NCBI GenBank assembly: GCA_964490005.1
Contig: CAZBBB010000002.1
Span: 7,299 to 71,298 of the forward strand
Length of the DNA stretch: 64,000 nucleotides
Direction of reading: 5' to 3'
Source: an uncultured Phycisphaerales bacterium
GTDB taxonomy: Bacteria; Planctomycetota; B15-G4
The stretch's first letter is position 1; each line of letters starts with the position of its first letter. Positions 3,366-63,404 of the stretch are shown piece by piece. Under the pieces are notes generated by a model. That model saw only the letters and a program-made list of their open reading frames with translations. It was not told where the DNA came from and did no database searches. The translations under genes were made by a program, and so were the position numbers.

Positions 3366-3503
3366 GGAGGCGATCCGGAGCGGGGACGGCGGGCAGGATG
3401 CGCGCCGCACCGGCGGCGTCTCCGGCGCGGAACGTTAACCGGGAACCCGCGCGGCGCACAGGGTGCGCTTCGCGTGCGCGACGTTCGCGGTGCGCGGCTG
3501 CCA

Positions 3504-3555
3504 CGGGGGCCTTCTCGCCTCCGGCCACGTGACGCCTCCGGCTCAAAGGCCCCCG
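3504..3555 (-). repeat. E2 hairpin element, copy a (core in sense on the minus strand).
   Basis: 10-bp arms cgggggcctt / aaggcccccg (minus-strand reading) flank the 30-nt core GAGCCGGAGGCGTCACGTGGCCGGAGGCGA at 3515..3544. The core is identical to the copies at 59587 and 61744. Confidence 0.7.
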
Positions 3556-3585
3556 GGCGCGCCGCGGGGGACGCGCGCGTGCCGC

Positions 3586-3720
3586 TGCGCCTCGTGCGGG
3601 GGCTCGCGAACGGCAGCCTTTCGGGGGGCGGAGTGAGCGAGCCCCCGCACGAGGCGCCCGCGCCCACCGTGCCGCGCTACGGCTGTTGTCCTTCGCCGCC
3701 CGCCGCGCGCCTGGCCGCGA
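3586..3720. repeat. Direct repeat DR-A (135 bp). An orphan copy of the 3' end of the SGNH/TPR gene plus its downstream hairpin; left boundary of the CRISPR-cas block.
   Basis: Aligns base-for-base with 16472..16606 with 3 mismatches (by eye). On the minus strand it reads ...AARRAAGGEGQQP-stop, against the genuine gene end ...AARRAADGEGQQP-stop at 16563. It ends 2 bp before the csb3 stop codon. Confidence 0.85.
3587..3657. repeat. E1 hairpin element, copy a (inside DR-A).
   Basis: Perfect 21-bp arms gcgcctcgtgcgggggctcgc / gcgagcccccgcacgaggcgc surround the 29-nt centre gaacggcagcctttcggggggcggagtga. Confidence 0.75.
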
Positions 3721-16471: not shown

Positions 16472-16606
16472 TGCGCCTCGTGCGGGGGCTCGCGAACGGC
16501 AGCCTTTCGGGGGGCGGAGTGAGCGAGCCCCCGCACGAGGCGCCCGCGCCGACCGTGCCGCGCTACGGCTGCTGTCCTTCGCCGTCCGCCGCGCGCCTGG
16601 CCGCGA
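16472..16606. repeat. Direct repeat DR-B (135 bp): the genuine 3' end of the SGNH/TPR gene plus its downstream hairpin; right boundary of the CRISPR-cas block.
   Basis: 132/135 identical to 3586..3720. It covers the last 14 codons and stop codon (16563..16565) of the minus-strand gene and 91 bp downstream. Confidence 0.85.
16473..16543. repeat. E1 hairpin element, copy b (inside DR-B); likely terminator of the SGNH/TPR gene.
   Basis: Same sequence as 3587..3657. It ends 19 nt before the minus-strand stop codon, i.e. it lies just downstream of the gene. Confidence 0.75.
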
Positions 16607-38395: not shown

Positions 38396-38468
38396 GGCGG
38401 TGTGCTGCGGGGTCTCCTCGCTCCGCCCCCCGAAAGGCTGCCGCTCGGAGACCCCGCAGCACACCGCC
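38396..38468 (+). repeat. E1 hairpin element, copy c (opposite orientation on the plus strand to copies a and b).
   Basis: Perfect 22-bp arms ggcggtgtgctgcggggtctcc / ggagaccccgcagcacaccgcc surround tcgctccgccccccgaaaggctgccgctc. That centre is the reverse complement of the E1a/b centre except for 2 positions. The element starts 12 nt after the stop of the membrane-protein gene. Confidence 0.75.
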
Positions 38469-57978: not shown

Positions 57979-59544
57979 ATGGCCTTGCTGCGCTTCGGGT
58001 GGCGCCTTGTCGCGGCGTGCTTCGTGTGCGTCGCGGTCCAGGCTCAGTTCGAACTGTTCGCGACCGAGGGGACCGCGTTCGCTCCCGTCGGCGATCGCGA
58101 CGGAGACGGATGGGCCGATCTCGCGGTGCAGCTTCCGGCGCCTGATGCGGGAGTCGTGCGGATCGTCTCGTCGGCGCACAACTCGATCCTGCTGACGATC
58201 ACGGGCGATGCGGGTCCGAACTCGACCGTGAAGCTGGCCGCAGCGGGCGATCTCGATCAGGACGGCGCGGCCGACCTGATCGTGGCATCGCCCTTGTCCG
58301 ATCTCGGCGGCATCGATGCGGGCAGCGTGCGCATCGTGTCCAGCGTCGATGGATCGACGCTGCGGCTCCTCGTCGGCAGTGCGCCCAACCAGCAACTGGG
58401 TTGGCGTGTCGTCATGATCCGCGACGCCGACTTCGACGGCACGCCCGACTATCTCGTGGCGACGCGCTTCATTCCGCCGAAACAGAACGCCGACGTGATC
58501 CTCTACTCGGGCGCCACGGGAGCGCTGCTGCGCCAGTGGACGAGCGGTCCGCTCGACACGTCCTTCGGCAATCGAGTCTTCGCGCCCGGGGATCTCGACG
58601 CCGATGGTGCCGACGACGTCGCGATCTTCGCCGCTCCTGTCGGTTGGGAAGACCCCAGCCTGCGGGTCTACTCCAGCGTGAGCGGCGCGCTGCTCCGCGA
58701 GTTTCCGATCACCGATGCCGCGCGCGTGCTGGTCGCCGCCGGCGACCGGGACGGGGACGGACACGGCGACGTGATCGTTCCGAGCCTCTACATCGATTGC
58801 ACGGTCCGCCTCGTCTCGGGGGCGACCGGAGCGACGCTGCTCGAACTGGGCGACCCGGCCGCCGAATCCACCACCTTCCTCATGGGCCTGGGGCGAGCCG
58901 ATGACATCGACAAGGATGGCGTAGGAGACTTTCTGCTGGGCCTGTGGGCCGAACACCCGGAAGGCAGCGCCTCCGTCCACGTCGTCTCGGGCGCCTCGGG
59001 CGACGTGCTCTTCAAGGCCTACCCGACTCAATCAGCGCCCAACCTCGTCGGCACTTCCTGGCCCTACTGGGGAGAGTCGGTCGACACGATCGGCGACGCC
59101 AACGGTGACGGCGTGCCCGACTTCGCGGTGACGGGCGCCTCGCAACCGGTTCGCGTGATGTCGGGGATGAAGTCGCCGTGGACTCTTGTGTTCCTCTCGG
59201 ACTTCAGTCTCAAGAACTTTCTCGTGGGTACGACCCCACTGCTCCCGCTGAAGCCGGTCGGTCTCGACTCGAGCAAGCACACGCCCGGCAATCGCGTGTT
59301 CCTCATCGTCGGCACCTCGCTGCTGGCCCTCCCGTGGAAAGGCGGCACGCTCTTGCCGAACCCGGACCTGATCCTCGGCCCGTTCAGTGCCGACGCCGAC
59401 GGACACGTCGCCTTGAGCGGAACGTGGCCGCCGGGCCTGCCGGCCGGGTTCTCGACCTGGTATCAGACCTGGGAGCTGACGAGTTCCACACCGTCGGGTC
59501 TCAAGTGGTCCAACGGCTTGCATGGCGTCGCCTCGGACTTCTGA
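57979..59544 (+). CDS. FG-GAP repeat secreted protein (521 aa) with the shared C-terminal domain.
   Basis: Start at Met42 of the track ORF (MALLRFGWRLVAACFVCVAVQAQ), with a GAGAGGAGA RBS upstream. Blades include GDRDGDGWADLAV and GDLDQDGAADLIVASP. C-terminus LPWKGGTLLP ... WPPGLPAG ... WSNGL. Confidence 0.8.
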   Translation: MALLRFGWRLVAACFVCVAVQAQFELFATEGTAFAPVGDRDGDGWADLAVQLPAPDAGVVRIVSSAHNSILLTITGDAGPNSTVKLAAAGDLDQDGAADLIVASPLSDLGGIDAGSVRIVSSVDGSTLRLLVGSAPNQQLGWRVVMIRDADFDGTPDYLVATRFIPPKQNADVILYSGATGALLRQWTSGPLDTSFGNRVFAPGDLDADGADDVAIFAAPVGWEDPSLRVYSSVSGALLREFPITDAARVLVAAGDRDGDGHGDVIVPSLYIDCTVRLVSGATGATLLELGDPAAESTTFLMGLGRADDIDKDGVGDFLLGLWAEHPEGSASVHVVSGASGDVLFKAYPTQSAPNLVGTSWPYWGESVDTIGDANGDGVPDFAVTGASQPVRVMSGMKSPWTLVFLSDFSLKNFLVGTTPLLPLKPVGLDSSKHTPGNRVFLIVGTSLLALPWKGGTLLPNPDLILGPFSADADGHVALSGTWPPGLPAGFSTWYQTWELTSSTPSGLKWSNGLHGVASDF

Positions 59545-59575
59545 GGCGGGGCGAGGGGGTGCTGGGCGGCGCGGC

Positions 59576-59627
59576 CGAGGGCCTCTGAGCCGGAGGCGTC
59601 ACGTGGCCGGAGGCGAAGAGGCCCTCG
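59576..59627 (+). repeat. E2 hairpin element, copy b (between convergent genes).
   Basis: 11-bp arms cgagggcctct / agaggccctcg flank the core GAGCCGGAGGCGTCACGTGGCCGGAGGCGA (59587..59616). Confidence 0.75.
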
Positions 59628-59657
59628 AGCCAGCCGCCTCACGCTGACCGCCACCGT

Positions 59658-60875
59658 TCAGCGCACCTCGCCGAGCTTCACCGCGCGCTTCTCGCGCGCC
59701 GCGAGCAGGGCGGCGGCCAGCACGCGCTGCGTCTCCCACGCGTCGGCGATGTCGGGCAGGGGGACGGGCGGCTTGTCGCCCGAGAGCGTCGCGAGGATGT
59801 CGGCGGCCATGTTCACGAAGCCGTGCTCGTAGCCGAGCATGTGGCCCTCGGGCCACCAGCGCGCGACCCAGGGGTGGCTCGGGTCGGTGGCGACGATGCG
59901 GCGCCAGCCGGCGCTGCGCGCGCCGTCGGGCGCGTCGTGCAGCCACAGTTCGTTGAGCGATTCGAAGGAGAAGCGCAGGCTGCCCTTGCTGCCGTTGAGT
60001 TCGATCTCGTTGCCGTTGAGATGGCCCGGCGCGTTGCGCGTGGCTTCGAAGGAGCCGACCGCACCGCCCGAGAAGCCGGCGAGAAACAGCAGCGCGTCGT
60101 CGACGTCGCTCCTGCCGGTCGCGACGCGCGTACGCTTGCCGGCGGCCTGGCCCTTGCCGCGCTTGCCGACGCCGTCGCCGGCACCCGCGAGCGGCCGGCG
60201 CGGCACGAAGGTGCGCGCGGTCGCGCCGTGCACTTCGGTGATCTCTTCGCCGGTGAGGAAGCGCGCGAGATCGATCAGGTGCGCGTTGAGGTCGCCGTGC
60301 GCGCCGCTGCCGGCGAGCTTGCGTTGGAAGCGCCAGCTCAGCGGCGTGCCCGGGCCGCCCCAGCTCTGCAGGTAGCGCGCGCGGACATGGTGCAGCGTAC
60401 CGAGGCGCCCCTCGCGCACGAGTTGCCAGGCCAGCGCGGCGGCCGGGCAGCGGCGGTAGTTGAACCAGACGAAGCTGTGTTGCCCGCGACGGGCGGCGAG
60501 GCGCGCGGCATCGCGCAGCGCGCGCGCGTCGTCGAGCGCGCCGGCCAGCGGCTTCTCGATCGCGACGTGCTTGCCGGCGGCCAGCGCGGCCAGGCCCTGC
60601 GGCGCGTGCAGGTGGTTGGGCGTGCCGATGTCGACGAGGTCGACGTCGGGGTCGGCGACCGCGGCCTTCCAGTCGGTCGTGTGGCGGGCAAAGCCCCAGG
60701 TGGCGGCGAAGGCCGCCAGGCGCTTGGCGTCGCGCGCGGCGACGATCTCCAGCGACGGCTTGCGGCGGGTCTCGAAGAAGCGCCCGGCCTGCCCCCAGGC
60801 ATTGGCGTGCGCGCGGCCCATGAACTGCTGGCCGAGCAGCGCGACGCGCAGCGGCCCGGTCTGCGAAGATGCCAT
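59658..60875 (-). CDS. Gfo/Idh/MocA family NAD(P)-dependent oxidoreductase (ThuB-like).
   Basis: Start at MASSQTGPLRVALLGQQFMGRAHA (Rossmann G.G..G region), then EKPLA and GTPNHLH motifs. The upstream 252 codons of the track ORF overlap the thuA-like gene and are rejected. Confidence 0.85.
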   Translation of the reverse strand: MASSQTGPLRVALLGQQFMGRAHANAWGQAGRFFETRRKPSLEIVAARDAKRLAAFAATWGFARHTTDWKAAVADPDVDLVDIGTPNHLHAPQGLAALAAGKHVAIEKPLAGALDDARALRDAARLAARRGQHSFVWFNYRRCPAAALAWQLVREGRLGTLHHVRARYLQSWGGPGTPLSWRFQRKLAGSGAHGDLNAHLIDLARFLTGEEITEVHGATARTFVPRRPLAGAGDGVGKRGKGQAAGKRTRVATGRSDVDDALLFLAGFSGGAVGSFEATRNAPGHLNGNEIELNGSKGSLRFSFESLNELWLHDAPDGARSAGWRRIVATDPSHPWVARWWPEGHMLGYEHGFVNMAADILATLSGDKPPVPLPDIADAWETQRVLAAALLAAREKRAVKLGEVR

Positions 60876-60908: not shown

Positions 60909-61694
60909 ATGACATCCCCGCGTCGTGTCGTGCAGCTTGCCGTCGGCCTGCTCGCGCTGAGTCTGCTCGCGGCCTGTTCGCCCGCGCCCGGCGGCTCGCC
61001 GAGCGGATCGGTGCCTCCGCGCCCCGTGCGCGTGCTGCTCGTGACGGGCGGCGGCTACCACGACTTCGAAGGCAACCCGCGGCTGCTGCTCGACGGGTTG
61101 CGCGCCGAGACCGACCTGCACTTCGACACGAGCGCCAAGCTCGGCGAGGGCGCGCCCGACGCGGCGGCCGCGCTGTCGCTGCTCGCCGCGCCCGACCTCG
61201 GCGACCGCTTCGACGCGCTGCTGCTCTACACGCAGGGCGAGCTGGGTTTCACCGACGCGCAGCAGCTCAACATCGCGCGCGCCGTGTCGCAGGGCCTGGG
61301 CGTCGTCGCGCTGCACTGCGCGCTCGACAGCCACCCGAACTGGCCGGCGGGCGACATGCTGCTCGGCGCGCGCTTTCAGTCCCACCCGCCCTTCGGGGAG
61401 ATCGAGGTCACGGTCGACATCGGCGATCACCCCGTGAGCGCGGGCCTGCCGACGAGTTGGTCGCTGCGCGACGAGTTCTATCACCTCGAGAAGGTCAAGC
61501 TCGAGGACGCCGCCGTGCTCATGACGGGCATCTCGCCGGCCGGCGGCGCGCGCCGCCCCGTCACCTGGGCCAAGACCTACGGCGAGGGCCGCGTCGTCGC
61601 CACGATCCTCGGCCACGGGCCCGAAACCCACGCCGACCCGCGCTACCGCCGCCTCGTCGCGCAGGCCCTGCGCTGGGTCGCCGCGCCGCGCTGA
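60909..61694 (+). CDS. ThuA-domain (trehalose-utilisation, class-I amidotransferase-like fold) lipoprotein.
   Basis: Lipobox LSLLAAC; VRVLLVTGGGYHDFEGN ... GVVALHCA ... W.KTYGEGRV. Divergent from the oxidoreductase gene, with 33 bp between start codons. Confidence 0.7.
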   Translation: MTSPRRVVQLAVGLLALSLLAACSPAPGGSPSGSVPPRPVRVLLVTGGGYHDFEGNPRLLLDGLRAETDLHFDTSAKLGEGAPDAAAALSLLAAPDLGDRFDALLLYTQGELGFTDAQQLNIARAVSQGLGVVALHCALDSHPNWPAGDMLLGARFQSHPPFGEIEVTVDIGDHPVSAGLPTSWSLRDEFYHLEKVKLEDAAVLMTGISPAGGARRPVTWAKTYGEGRVVATILGHGPETHADPRYRRLVAQALRWVAAPR

Positions 61695-61732
61695 GATCGA
61701 CCGCTTCGCGGGGATCGCCCGGGCGCCGCGCC

Positions 61733-61784
61733 CGGGGGTCTTCGAGCCGGAGGCGTCACGTGGCCGGAGGCGAGAAGACCCCCG
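61733..61784 (+). repeat. E2 hairpin element, copy c (between convergent genes).
   Basis: 11-bp arms cgggggtcttc / gaagacccccg flank the identical 30-nt core (61744..61773). Confidence 0.75.
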
Positions 61785-61808
61785 AGGCAGGCGCCCTCGA
61801 GGTCGACG

Positions 61809-63404
61809 CTACTTCGCCGCGCGCGGCGGCGGGGGGCGCTCGTCGTCGTTGGCGAGCAGCCAGGCGGTGTTGTAGACGAGGCGCGCGGTCCGGGCGCACT
61901 TGTCGACGTCGACCAGGTCGATGGTGTCGCGCCAGGTGTGGTAGTCGGCGTTCCTGCTGATCGGCAGGCCCTCGAAGAAGAACAGCACGGGGATGCCGAT
62001 GCGGTGGAAGGAGTAGTGGTCGCTGCGCTCGAACAGCTCGCGGCCCTCGTCGGTGACGAGCTTTCTGATCTTCGTCGGCTGCAGCTTGTTGGCGGCCTTG
62101 AGCAGCTTCTCGAAGCCCGGGTTCTCGGGCACGCCGAGGATCGCGACCTCGTCGGCCTCGCCGCGGCCGACCATGTCCATGTTGATCATGGCGATCAGCG
62201 CGTCCTTCGGGACGGGCGGCTGGTCGCACAGCGCGGCGCTGCCGAGCAGGCCGTCCTCTTCGGCGGCGAAGAAGCAGGCCAGGATCGAGCGGCGCGGCGG
62301 CTGCGCGCCCAGCGCGCCGGCCACCTCGAGCAGCGCGGCGCAGCCGCTGGCGTTGTCGTCGGCGCCGAAGCCGATGCGCGAGCGCGCGTCGACGCCGACA
62401 TGGTCGTAGTGCGCGCCGAGGACGACGTGCTCGGCGGCCAGCGCCTGGTCGGCGCCCGGCAGCCGCCCGACGATGTTGTCGATCGAGACCTCGGCGACCT
62501 CGCTCGCCGAGGACAGGCTCACGCGCCGCCCGCTGCGCACGGGCCTGGGCGGCTTGGCGGTCTTGTCGGCGGCGGCGGCGATCTCGAGCGGGTCGACGCC
62601 GAGGATGGCCTGCGCCGCCGCCGGCGTGATCTCGAGCACCGGGATCGCGACCGCGCTCGGCGCGTCGGGCGGGCGTCCGTCGGCCCAGCTCGCCCACGTG
62701 TGCCGAAAGCCCAGGCGCGCGGGCTCGGGGTCGGTCCAGCCGTTCTTCTTCGGCGGCGGCTCGGGCGGACGGCGCACGACGAGCACGCCCGCGGCCTTCT
62801 CCGACTCGAGCAGCACGAGCTTGGAGTACAGCTCGGCGGCCGGCGAGACCTCGGGCCCTTGCAAGCGGCTCTTGTGGCGCGGCTCGCCCTCGACGATCAC
62901 GGCCACGGTGCCGGCGACCTCGCCGGTGACGTCGTCGTACTTGTCGGCGTCGCTGTCGATGCCGAAGCCGAACAGCACGGCCTCGCCCGCGCCGGTGCCG
63001 TTGGCGAGCCAGACGGGGACGAAGTCCTCGCCGTAGGCGAAGGTGCGGGCCGCTTCGCCCTCGCCCTGCAGCGCGAGGGCGCACTGCGCGGGCAGCGGCG
63101 CGGGCAGTTTGCGCGAGAAGGGGATGCGGAAGGACCCGCCCTCGCCCGCGCCGGTGAATCCGGCCTGCTGCAGGCGGCCGATCAGGTAGTCGCCGGCGCG
63201 CGTCAGGCCGAGGCTCGGCGAGTCGCGCCCCTCGAGCGGCGCGCTCGCGAGGGCGACCAGATCGGCGCGCAACTCGTCCTCGGTGATCGTCGCGAAGCCG
63301 ACCGCCGGATCGGAGGCGGGCGGCGCGGCGGCGGCGGGCGCGGCCGCCAGCCACGCCGCCAGCAGCGAGGCGAGCAAGGGGTGCAGGGCGGGCGCGGCGC
63401 GCAT
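61809..63404 (-). CDS. M28 family aminopeptidase with a PA domain.
   Basis: Start at Met150 of the track ORF (MRAAPALHPLLASLLAAWLAAAPAAA). Motifs HVVLGAHYDHVG, GADDNASGCAALLEVA, FFAAEEDGLLGS, NMDMVG and SDHYSFH. Confidence 0.85.
   Translation of the reverse strand: MRAAPALHPLLASLLAAWLAAAPAAAAPPASDPAVGFATITEDELRADLVALASAPLEGRDSPSLGLTRAGDYLIGRLQQAGFTGAGEGGSFRIPFSRKLPAPLPAQCALALQGEGEAARTFAYGEDFVPVWLANGTGAGEAVLFGFGIDSDADKYDDVTGEVAGTVAVIVEGEPRHKSRLQGPEVSPAAELYSKLVLLESEKAAGVLVVRRPPEPPPKKNGWTDPEPARLGFRHTWASWADGRPPDAPSAVAIPVLEITPAAAQAILGVDPLEIAAAADKTAKPPRPVRSGRRVSLSSASEVAEVSIDNIVGRLPGADQALAAEHVVLGAHYDHVGVDARSRIGFGADDNASGCAALLEVAGALGAQPPRRSILACFFAAEEDGLLGSAALCDQPPVPKDALIAMINMDMVGRGEADEVAILGVPENPGFEKLLKAANKLQPTKIRKLVTDEGRELFERSDHYSFHRIGIPVLFFFEGLPISRNADYHTWRDTIDLVDVDKCARTARLVYNTAWLLANDDERPPPPRAAK

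Follow-up and report, generated by a model that had tools for sequence, protein, structure and literature searches.

Introduction

Dispersed palindromic repeats influence how stable mRNAs are, where operons begin and end and how genomes rearrange and, to our knowledge, are almost unstudied outside Proteobacteria. The ERIC/IRU and YPAL elements of Enterobacteria are imperfect palindromes of ~100–170 nt that lie in transcribed intergenic regions in either orientation and at low to moderate copy number, and that form long RNA hairpins altering mRNA stability. Integron attC sites are imperfect hairpins of 57–141 nt, found at gene 3′ ends and functional as folded strands. REPs are palindromes of 20–40 bp tagged by an unpaired GTAG or CGTC that mostly follow open reading frames and separate genes in unidirectional or convergent arrangement (Di Nocera et al., PMC3733652). 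RAYT genes are associated with GTAG REPs, no transposase is known for CGTC REPs, and untagged REP-like stem-loop families exist in several phyla (PMC3733652).

Here, we describe E2, a family of hairpin repeats, together with its sister family E1, starting from a 64,000-nucleotide stretch of DNA (the window, C2:7299–71298 on contig C2) of an uncultured Phycisphaerales bacterium whose draft genome comprises 3.49 Mb in 204 contigs (73% G+C, 87% complete). A preliminary description of the locus had named three candidate roles for E2, and that of a REP-like element fits best by analogy. Like REPs, BIMEs and REPINs, E2 is a short, non-coding, imperfect palindrome that is multi-copy, lineage-specific, placed behind open reading frames and found in either orientation. 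As in REPs and BIMEs, copies sometimes cluster (E2a lies beside E1a, and two copies form a tandem pair on contig C13), subfamilies show compensated stem changes, and the elements are probably transcribed as 3′-UTR hairpins. The likeness does not extend to detail, since the 76-nt hairpin and ~100-nt unit of E2 stand against the 20–40 bp of REPs, about three times the REP length, and its feet (…GCGCGTKCC/GGGCGG and CCGCCC/NCCACCGAC…) have no conserved GTAG or CGTC. Furthermore, no gene for RAYT, a Y1 HUH transposase whose gene is typically flanked by REPs, was found in the assembly, the copy number is low (17 E2 and 13 E1), and conservation is inverted, with an invariant apex and a hypervariable middle stem.

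ERIC/IRU and YPAL elements resemble E2 in palindrome size, orientation, copy number and intergenic place; ERIC, however, is unrelated in sequence, belongs to another phylum and is conserved over its full length, whereas E2 is tip-conserved and stem-variable. Integron attC sites share with E2 an imperfect hairpin at the 3′ ends of genes, but their stem base is conserved and their centre variable, the opposite of E2, and they form arrays beside an integrase gene, whereas E2 is scattered over 14 contigs. The Correia/NEMIS MITEs of Neisseria would resemble E2 in forming RNase III-type hairpins when transcribed, and like E2 they are small, non-coding and dispersed, consist of two inverted arms and can overlap gene 3′ ends (PMC3733652). 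Set beside MITE terminal inverted repeats, the E2 arms of at least 23 nt are inverted repeats that span most of the element; however, the terminal repeats are the conserved part of MITEs, whereas part of the arm is the most variable region of E2, for which neither a target-site duplication of at least 5 nt nor an autonomous partner with the same ends was found. Intrinsic terminators are also GC-rich hairpins that closely follow stop codons, and E2 is often found between convergent genes, but the usual terminator stem of 5–14 bp and loop of 3–8 nt differ from the 27 bp and 30-nt structured tip of E2, which has no U-tract on either side and a near-identical sequence at 17 sites. The most apt description of E2 is that of a new family of long, untagged palindromic repeats of REP/ERIC-like type, unusual in that the tip is conserved.

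Results

E2 is a ~100-nt repeat present in 17 copies

The preliminary description had reported three copies of a 52-nt element with an identical 30-nt core. This core, GAGCCGGAGGCGTCACGTGGCCGGAGGCGA, which forms the tip of the E2 hairpin, has three exact matches in the window, at 3515–3544 on the minus strand (E2a) and at 59587–59616 (E2b) and 61744–61773 (E2c) on the plus strand, in agreement with that report; no further match was found in the window with up to three mismatches allowed. The core is not confined to these three sites, as the count over the whole genome gave 12 exact copies and 17 with at most three mismatches, nine in forward and eight in reverse orientation. A covariance model made from the 17 copies recovered the same 17 and one weaker match, which is an E1 copy. 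We ruled out that E2 is a product of chance or an artefact, since 100 dinucleotide-preserving shuffles of the window contained no core match and the 17 copies are spread over 14 contigs with different flanks.

Alignment of the copies with long flanks showed that the unit extends beyond 52 nt to ~100 nt. The earlier proposal of a structured repeat stands, and its size is revised to a 76-nt hairpin of 27 bp within the ~100-nt unit, with the consensus order …GCGCGTKCC-GGGCGGCGCGSCCGRGGGNCTNN-core-NNAGNCCCYCGAGSCAGCCGCCC-NCCACCGAC…. The full unit of E2b occupies 59555–59652 on the plus strand (hairpin 59564–59639), a 98-nt match to the model at C2:66853–66950 scoring 97.7 bits; E2c occupies 61712–61809 on the plus strand (hairpin 61721–61796; C2:69010–69107, 95.7 bits) and E2a 3479–3576 on the minus strand (hairpin 3492–3567; C2:10777–10874, 89 bits). 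A direct tandem pair at C13:18261–18459, which is a local duplication whose two members differ at one tip base and one arm base, has a period of 101 nt and thereby gives the unit length directly.

Some observations touch on how the assembly renders these repeats. Runs of exactly 100 N lie in intergenic spacers at C14:38814–38913, C30:16672–16771 and C48:3781–3880, and an E1 copy is 70 nt away from one of these runs. They may be scaffold gaps at more, unassembled repeat copies or stretches kept out of the sequence, so that the true copy number of E2 may exceed 17. The copy at C185:98–195, located 98 nt from the contig end, combines a left arm of the CTCT subtype with a right arm of the GCAG/CCCC subtype and has four mismatches; it is probably either a chimera made in assembly across the identical tip or a genuine product of recombination between copies.

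Each copy folds into a single long hairpin with a structured tip

On either strand, each E2 copy folds into a single long hairpin of 76 nt and 27 bp. From the base up, 7 bp form a basal stem, which a 2-nt/1-nt bulge separates from 3 bp; a 1-nt bulge then leads to a middle stem of 11 bp. The core, earlier described as a conserved interior, is not an open loop; it is predicted to fold into a tandem GA/GA mismatch, a GCC/GGC helix of 3 bp, a GGA/GGA internal loop, a GGC/GCC helix of 3 bp and an 8-nt loop, GUCACGUG. RNA folding of the core strand gave about −66 to −67 kcal/mol among the copies (z = −3.6 to −4.4; E2b, −67.5 kcal/mol, z = −4.4), and −60 to −63 kcal/mol for the opposite strand. Folded as DNA, the two strands reach −31 and −29 kcal/mol (E2b, −31, z = −3.3).

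In the 17-copy alignment, standard pairs occupy 97.4% of cells, compared to 89.4% after shuffling of partners among copies, and sliding the 3′ partner by 1–3 columns lowers pairing to 34–49%. Changes on both sides were seen at 10 pairs. All 27 pairs are Watson-Crick in 10 of the 17 copies, extending the paired arms well beyond the window, and most mismatches fall in four copies that are decayed or odd. Perfect pairing of the arms next to the core, as first described for all three window copies, is found in E2b and E2c (11 bp each), while E2a has 10 bp and an innermost T.G wobble. We also considered whether wobble pairs indicate an RNA strand; with eight G.T against three A.C cells, and four of the G.T contributed by one decayed copy, they are uninformative on this point.

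Because the E2 fold exists as a palindrome in DNA and could also form in RNA, covariation alone is no proof of RNA selection. Quasi-palindromes are known to mutate through template switching, by which a change in one arm can be copied to the other.

An invariant tip is carried on a hypervariable, compensated stem

Divergence from the E2 consensus amounts to 1.8% in the tip, 5–9% in the basal (outer) stem, 18–19% in the middle stem and 38–48% in the flanks, and the contrast between tip and arms is pronounced (Fisher p = 6e-14). E2 is a conserved tip and base with a hypervariable, compensated helix between them. The constrained interior and compensated exterior suggested at the outset are both visible in the contrast of tip and middle stem and in the 97.4% of paired cells. 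The 17 copies have a common tip, identical in 12, and must therefore have arisen from one another by copying.

The arms had been described as specific to each copy; we find instead that they follow the family consensus GGGCGGCGCGSCCGRGGGNCTNN, with few hypervariable, compensated positions. Four arm subfamilies can be told apart (CTCT/AGAG, CTGC/GCAG, CTGT/ACAG and CTTC/GAAG), each common to two to four copies, which is the pattern expected of a family spreading by copying. In a hand tabulation from the alignment, several covarying position pairs displayed all four combinations of states, indicating either recurrent double changes or exchange between copies, and consequently fewer independent compensatory events than the raw counts suggest.

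E2 lies behind the 3′ ends of genes

Genes were called with a codon-usage model, for which the long open reading frames of this genome served as training set, and Pfam searches with some of the neighbours confirmed those genes. By these calls, all E2 copies are intergenic and near the 3′ end of a gene or tRNA. Among the 15 loci at which both neighbours are known, seven are convergent, eight tandem and none divergent; among all spacers of at least 20 nt, 13.5% are convergent and 26% divergent, and the convergent excess of E2 is significant (p = 0.002). With E1 and E2 pooled, p is ~3e-4 each for the convergent excess and for the absence of divergent sites. The association with convergent pairs and 3′ ends that had been proposed from the window thus holds genome-wide, and E2 survives only where a short spacer follows the 3′ end of a transcription unit, with both orientations represented.

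At tandem sites, E2 adjoins the stop of the upstream gene in most cases, 23–75 nt from the core, and in several convergent spacers of 103–114 nt it takes up essentially the whole spacer. The stop-codon distances of the window copies, 25–39 nt, are those originally given. E2b lies between an FG-GAP repeat protein gene (57979–59544, plus strand; PF13517, PF01839), whose stop is 20 nt before the hairpin foot, and a convergent gene for a Gfo/Idh/MocA (ThuB-like) oxidoreductase (59658–60875, minus strand; PF01408, PF22725, PF02894). E2c is similarly placed between a ThuA-domain protein gene (60909–61694, plus strand; PF06283), which stops 27 nt before the hairpin foot, and a convergent peptidase M28 gene (61809–63404, minus strand; PF04389). 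Within C42:16073–16309, a copy lies 64 nt downstream of tRNA-Gln(UUG), on the opposite strand.

A neighbouring stop codon falls inside the outer part of E2 in two copies. At C132:2842–2920, the stop of an upstream 232-aa open reading frame overlaps the E2 tip and an arm encodes the last residues; here, the insertion seems to have replaced the original 3′ end of the gene.

Relative to the upstream gene, E2 at tandem sites is antisense in six cases and sense in two, and E1 in five and two. This bias is not significant (combined binomial p of ~0.12), and orientation is significantly related neither to GC skew nor to the strand that carries most of the local genes. We rejected a regulon or common neighbour function, as the adjoining genes (FG-GAP, Gfo/Idh/MocA, M28, M48 and M16 peptidases, FTCD, radical SAM, BNR) have no theme.

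E2 lacks the marks of terminators, coding sequences and known RNA families

One proposed role of E2 was that of a bidirectional terminator. After the hairpin, no copy has a T-run on either strand, with 0–5 scattered T in 20 nt, and a consensus terminator scan did not flag E2b or E2c. Ordinary terminators with a GC stem and T-tract are present elsewhere in the genome. The lack of a T-tract means that E2 is not a canonical intrinsic terminator, and the proposal is weakened accordingly. A Shine-Dalgarno or anti-Shine-Dalgarno sponge, a further suggested role, gained no support, as orientation relative to transcription is mixed, GGAGG is partly base-paired and the element is absent in the relatives searched.

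An Rfam search of the window yielded no match at the gathering threshold, and the best match under relaxed settings was a plant miRNA model (E = 8.6). Three further candidates were rejected. A coding role was discarded, as the frames that start at the GUG behind the first GGAGG differ among copies in length and in where they end. Insertion of the tip into pre-existing terminators was discarded as well, since the arms follow the family consensus and no 'empty' scaffold hairpins exist. The third was a parS-like site: the CACGTG region has the central 7 nt in common with what we take to be the parS consensus, and this TCACGTG is all that is shared, its flanks not being palindromic.

A sister family, E1, and the borders of a CRISPR-cas region

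In a scan of the genome for perfect large-loop hairpins, E1 and E2 were the sole recurrent families. E1 has 13 copies genome-wide, with the tip GAGCGGCAGCCTTTCGGGGGGCGGAGCGA on perfect stems of 12–23 bp that vary between copies. Its scaffold is that of E2, with GGGGGNCTNN arms, a junction bearing GA/GA mismatches and comparable outer flanks, and its tip is homologous to that of E2, the two agreeing at roughly two in three positions when aligned by hand. E1 and E2 are thus branches of a single superfamily, and the tip of either branch is nearly invariant.

Three E1 copies lie in the window. E1a (3587–3657, plus strand) carries the tip GAACGGCAGCCTTTCGGGGGGCGGAGTGA on a 21-bp stem and is 32 nt from E2a, the distance originally claimed; E1b (16473–16543, plus strand) is identical to E1a, and the two lie on either side of a CRISPR-cas region. 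The third copy (38396–38468, minus strand; C2:45694–45766) has a 22-bp stem of another arm sequence and the same tip.

The ~12.9-kb CRISPR-cas region is bracketed by a 134-bp direct repeat with three mismatches, at 3587–3720 and 16473–16606 (C2:10885–11018 and C2:23771–23904), and the start of this repeat is exactly the E1 hairpin foot. The CRISPR array, whose repeat contains GTCGCAAGACTGCGGCCCCGTTGAAG, abuts the second copy of the 134-bp repeat. It looks as if the CRISPR-cas island was inserted at, or duplicated with, an E1 element.

Mobility and distribution of E2

We searched the assembly for enzymes that might mobilise E2, including the RAYT/TnpA(REP)-like gene whose association had been considered earlier. 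In the 87%-complete assembly, and bearing in mind that repeats often fail to assemble, there was no match to Y1_Tnp/RAYT (PF01797), a family that the control search found in six of 14 genomes, and none to the IS110 and TnpB transposase families. The assembly likewise contained no match to Y2 transposase, a search that detected none in any control genome either. With respect to an autonomous partner, the outer-arm sequence of E2 occurs outside the copies only at unrelated, mostly coding sites. Target-site duplications of at least 5 nt were not seen beyond chance at any consistent offset; those of 2–4 nt would be hidden by the blurred ends of the element.

The core with up to three mismatches had no match in 40 related genomes, the covariance model none in either the 41 genomes searched from the order or a 150-genome sample from the phylum, and the exact 25-nt centre of the core none in genome, metagenome and viral collections; a pattern of the scaffold with any tip gave three unrelated chance matches only. 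E2 was thus not found in the ~190 other Planctomycetota genomes searched, nor in these collections.

We compared the loci flanking E2 with those of relatives. A Logan contig with ThuA at 88% identity continues for 460 nt past the stop codon without E2. In L056 (GCA_052387675.1, JBQTIY010000011.1:117484–130752), a 305-kb MAG contig with ThuB at 75% identity, the divergent ThuA/ThuB arrangement is kept without E2-like sequence. The convergent spacers of this relative measure 4 and 45 nt, against 113–114 nt here, of which ~100 nt is E2, and between ThuB and the convergent FG-GAP gene it has AP_endonuc_2 and MFS transporter genes where the window has E2b alone. The ThuA/ThuB comparisons fit a gain of E2 in the source lineage. 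Family-level relatives, with FTCD at 60–66% identity, have lost synteny and are uninformative here. A search through the flanking proteins gave no exact empty site, the nearest contigs being at 88%, 75% and at most 67% identity with changed neighbourhoods, and the mobility of E2 is therefore inferred.

Discussion

We regard it as probable that E2, which with E1 makes up a superfamily confined to this Planctomycetota lineage, is a non-autonomous palindromic repeat of the REP/ERIC/MITE-like kind that is kept at 3′ ends and whose transcript is a stable 3′-UTR hairpin. The tip would be the part that is read sequence-specifically, by a copying enzyme or by a host protein, and the middle stem would merely need to be a helix, kept perfect by selection for the hairpin or by templated arm-to-arm repair through quasi-palindrome template switching. 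Where RNA polymerase reads through, a very stable rod-like hairpin would be added to the 3′ UTR. Given what is known of REP, ERIC and Correia elements, a transcribed 27-bp hairpin is expected to impede 3′ exonucleases, to be cut by RNase III or to make the polymerase pause; canonical intrinsic termination would not be expected, because there is no U-tract. The restriction to 3′ ends would result mainly from selection against insertions elsewhere.

The same rod can form from both strands, and every copy lies about 10–60 nt behind a stop codon or tRNA gene; convergent spacers are strongly over-represented, and no divergent spacer has a copy. These features, and a constraint on the tip much stronger than that on the arms, could also point to an element adopted by the host at 3′ ends, either as a bidirectional transcription barrier or insulator between closely packed genes or as an mRNA 3′ stabiliser, with a tip-binding host protein that replaces the U-tract in factor-dependent termination or protection. 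An invariant tip on a hypervariable stem is not obviously needed by a purely selfish element, and a host function would fit it too. However, T-tract terminators exist in the genome while E2 has a T-tract on neither strand, only ~15 of the ~190 convergent spacers of at least 20 nt hold E2, and none of the relatives searched has the element, not even at the syntenic ThuA/ThuB locus, so that a host function would be dispensable. The same position bias is expected of any tolerated insertion (PMC3733652), and we consider host adoption unlikely. Very unlikely, in our assessment, is a role at the level of DNA, in which the hairpin or cruciform, or the tip with its two direct repeats of GCCGGAGGCG around CACGTG, would bind a recombinase or nucleoid protein and mark sites of island integration or deletion. 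The 134-bp direct repeat that begins with E1 and brackets the 12.9-kb CRISPR-cas region speaks for such a role, as does the placement of E2b where a relative has AP_endonuc_2 and an MFS transporter between ThuB and FG-GAP, and the few non-Watson-Crick cells and lack of strand preference relative to transcription agree with it. These two rearrangements are nevertheless single cases, mainly of E1, and no copy is accompanied by a gene for a recombinase or transposase. Moreover, E2b and E2c around ThuA/ThuB are of different subtypes and hence do not stem from a recent duplication, and the resemblance of CACGTG to parS is limited to the central 7 nt, without flanking palindromes.

Two further readings start from the tip itself. 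Its two invariant GGAGG motifs (CCUCC on the other strand), and the GGA triplets in the internal loop of the predicted fold, might suggest a trans-acting structured RNA that titrates ribosomes, the 16S 3′ end or a CsrA-like protein. We consider this extremely improbable, since a promoter-like signal is lacking, the fold leaves only half of each GGAGG unpaired, Rfam gives no match and E2 is absent from all relatives searched; in addition, orientation at tandem sites is mixed (six antisense, two sense), so that different copies would expose opposite motifs. Distinctly unlikely is that E1 and E2 represent an undescribed class of mobile hairpin whose enzyme reads the folded single-strand apex rather than the stem or ends and whose arms are regenerated, each from the other, by fold-back or template-switch synthesis whenever the element is copied; recognition of the apex combined with regeneration of the arms would yield an invariant tip on a variable, paired stem without RNA selection.

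As a non-autonomous palindromic repeat, E2 is modest in weight, being a new repeat family of a familiar general type in one sparsely sampled lineage. In this genome, the E2 family marks assembly breaks or possible chimeras, and one E1 copy marks the borders of a CRISPR-cas island. E2 nonetheless offers a clean case in Planctomycetota of a repeat whose conserved part is the hairpin tip, which neither the REP/RAYT nor the MITE model predicts, and a protein that reads this tip, if it exists, would be a new mobilising enzyme or a new 3′-end factor.
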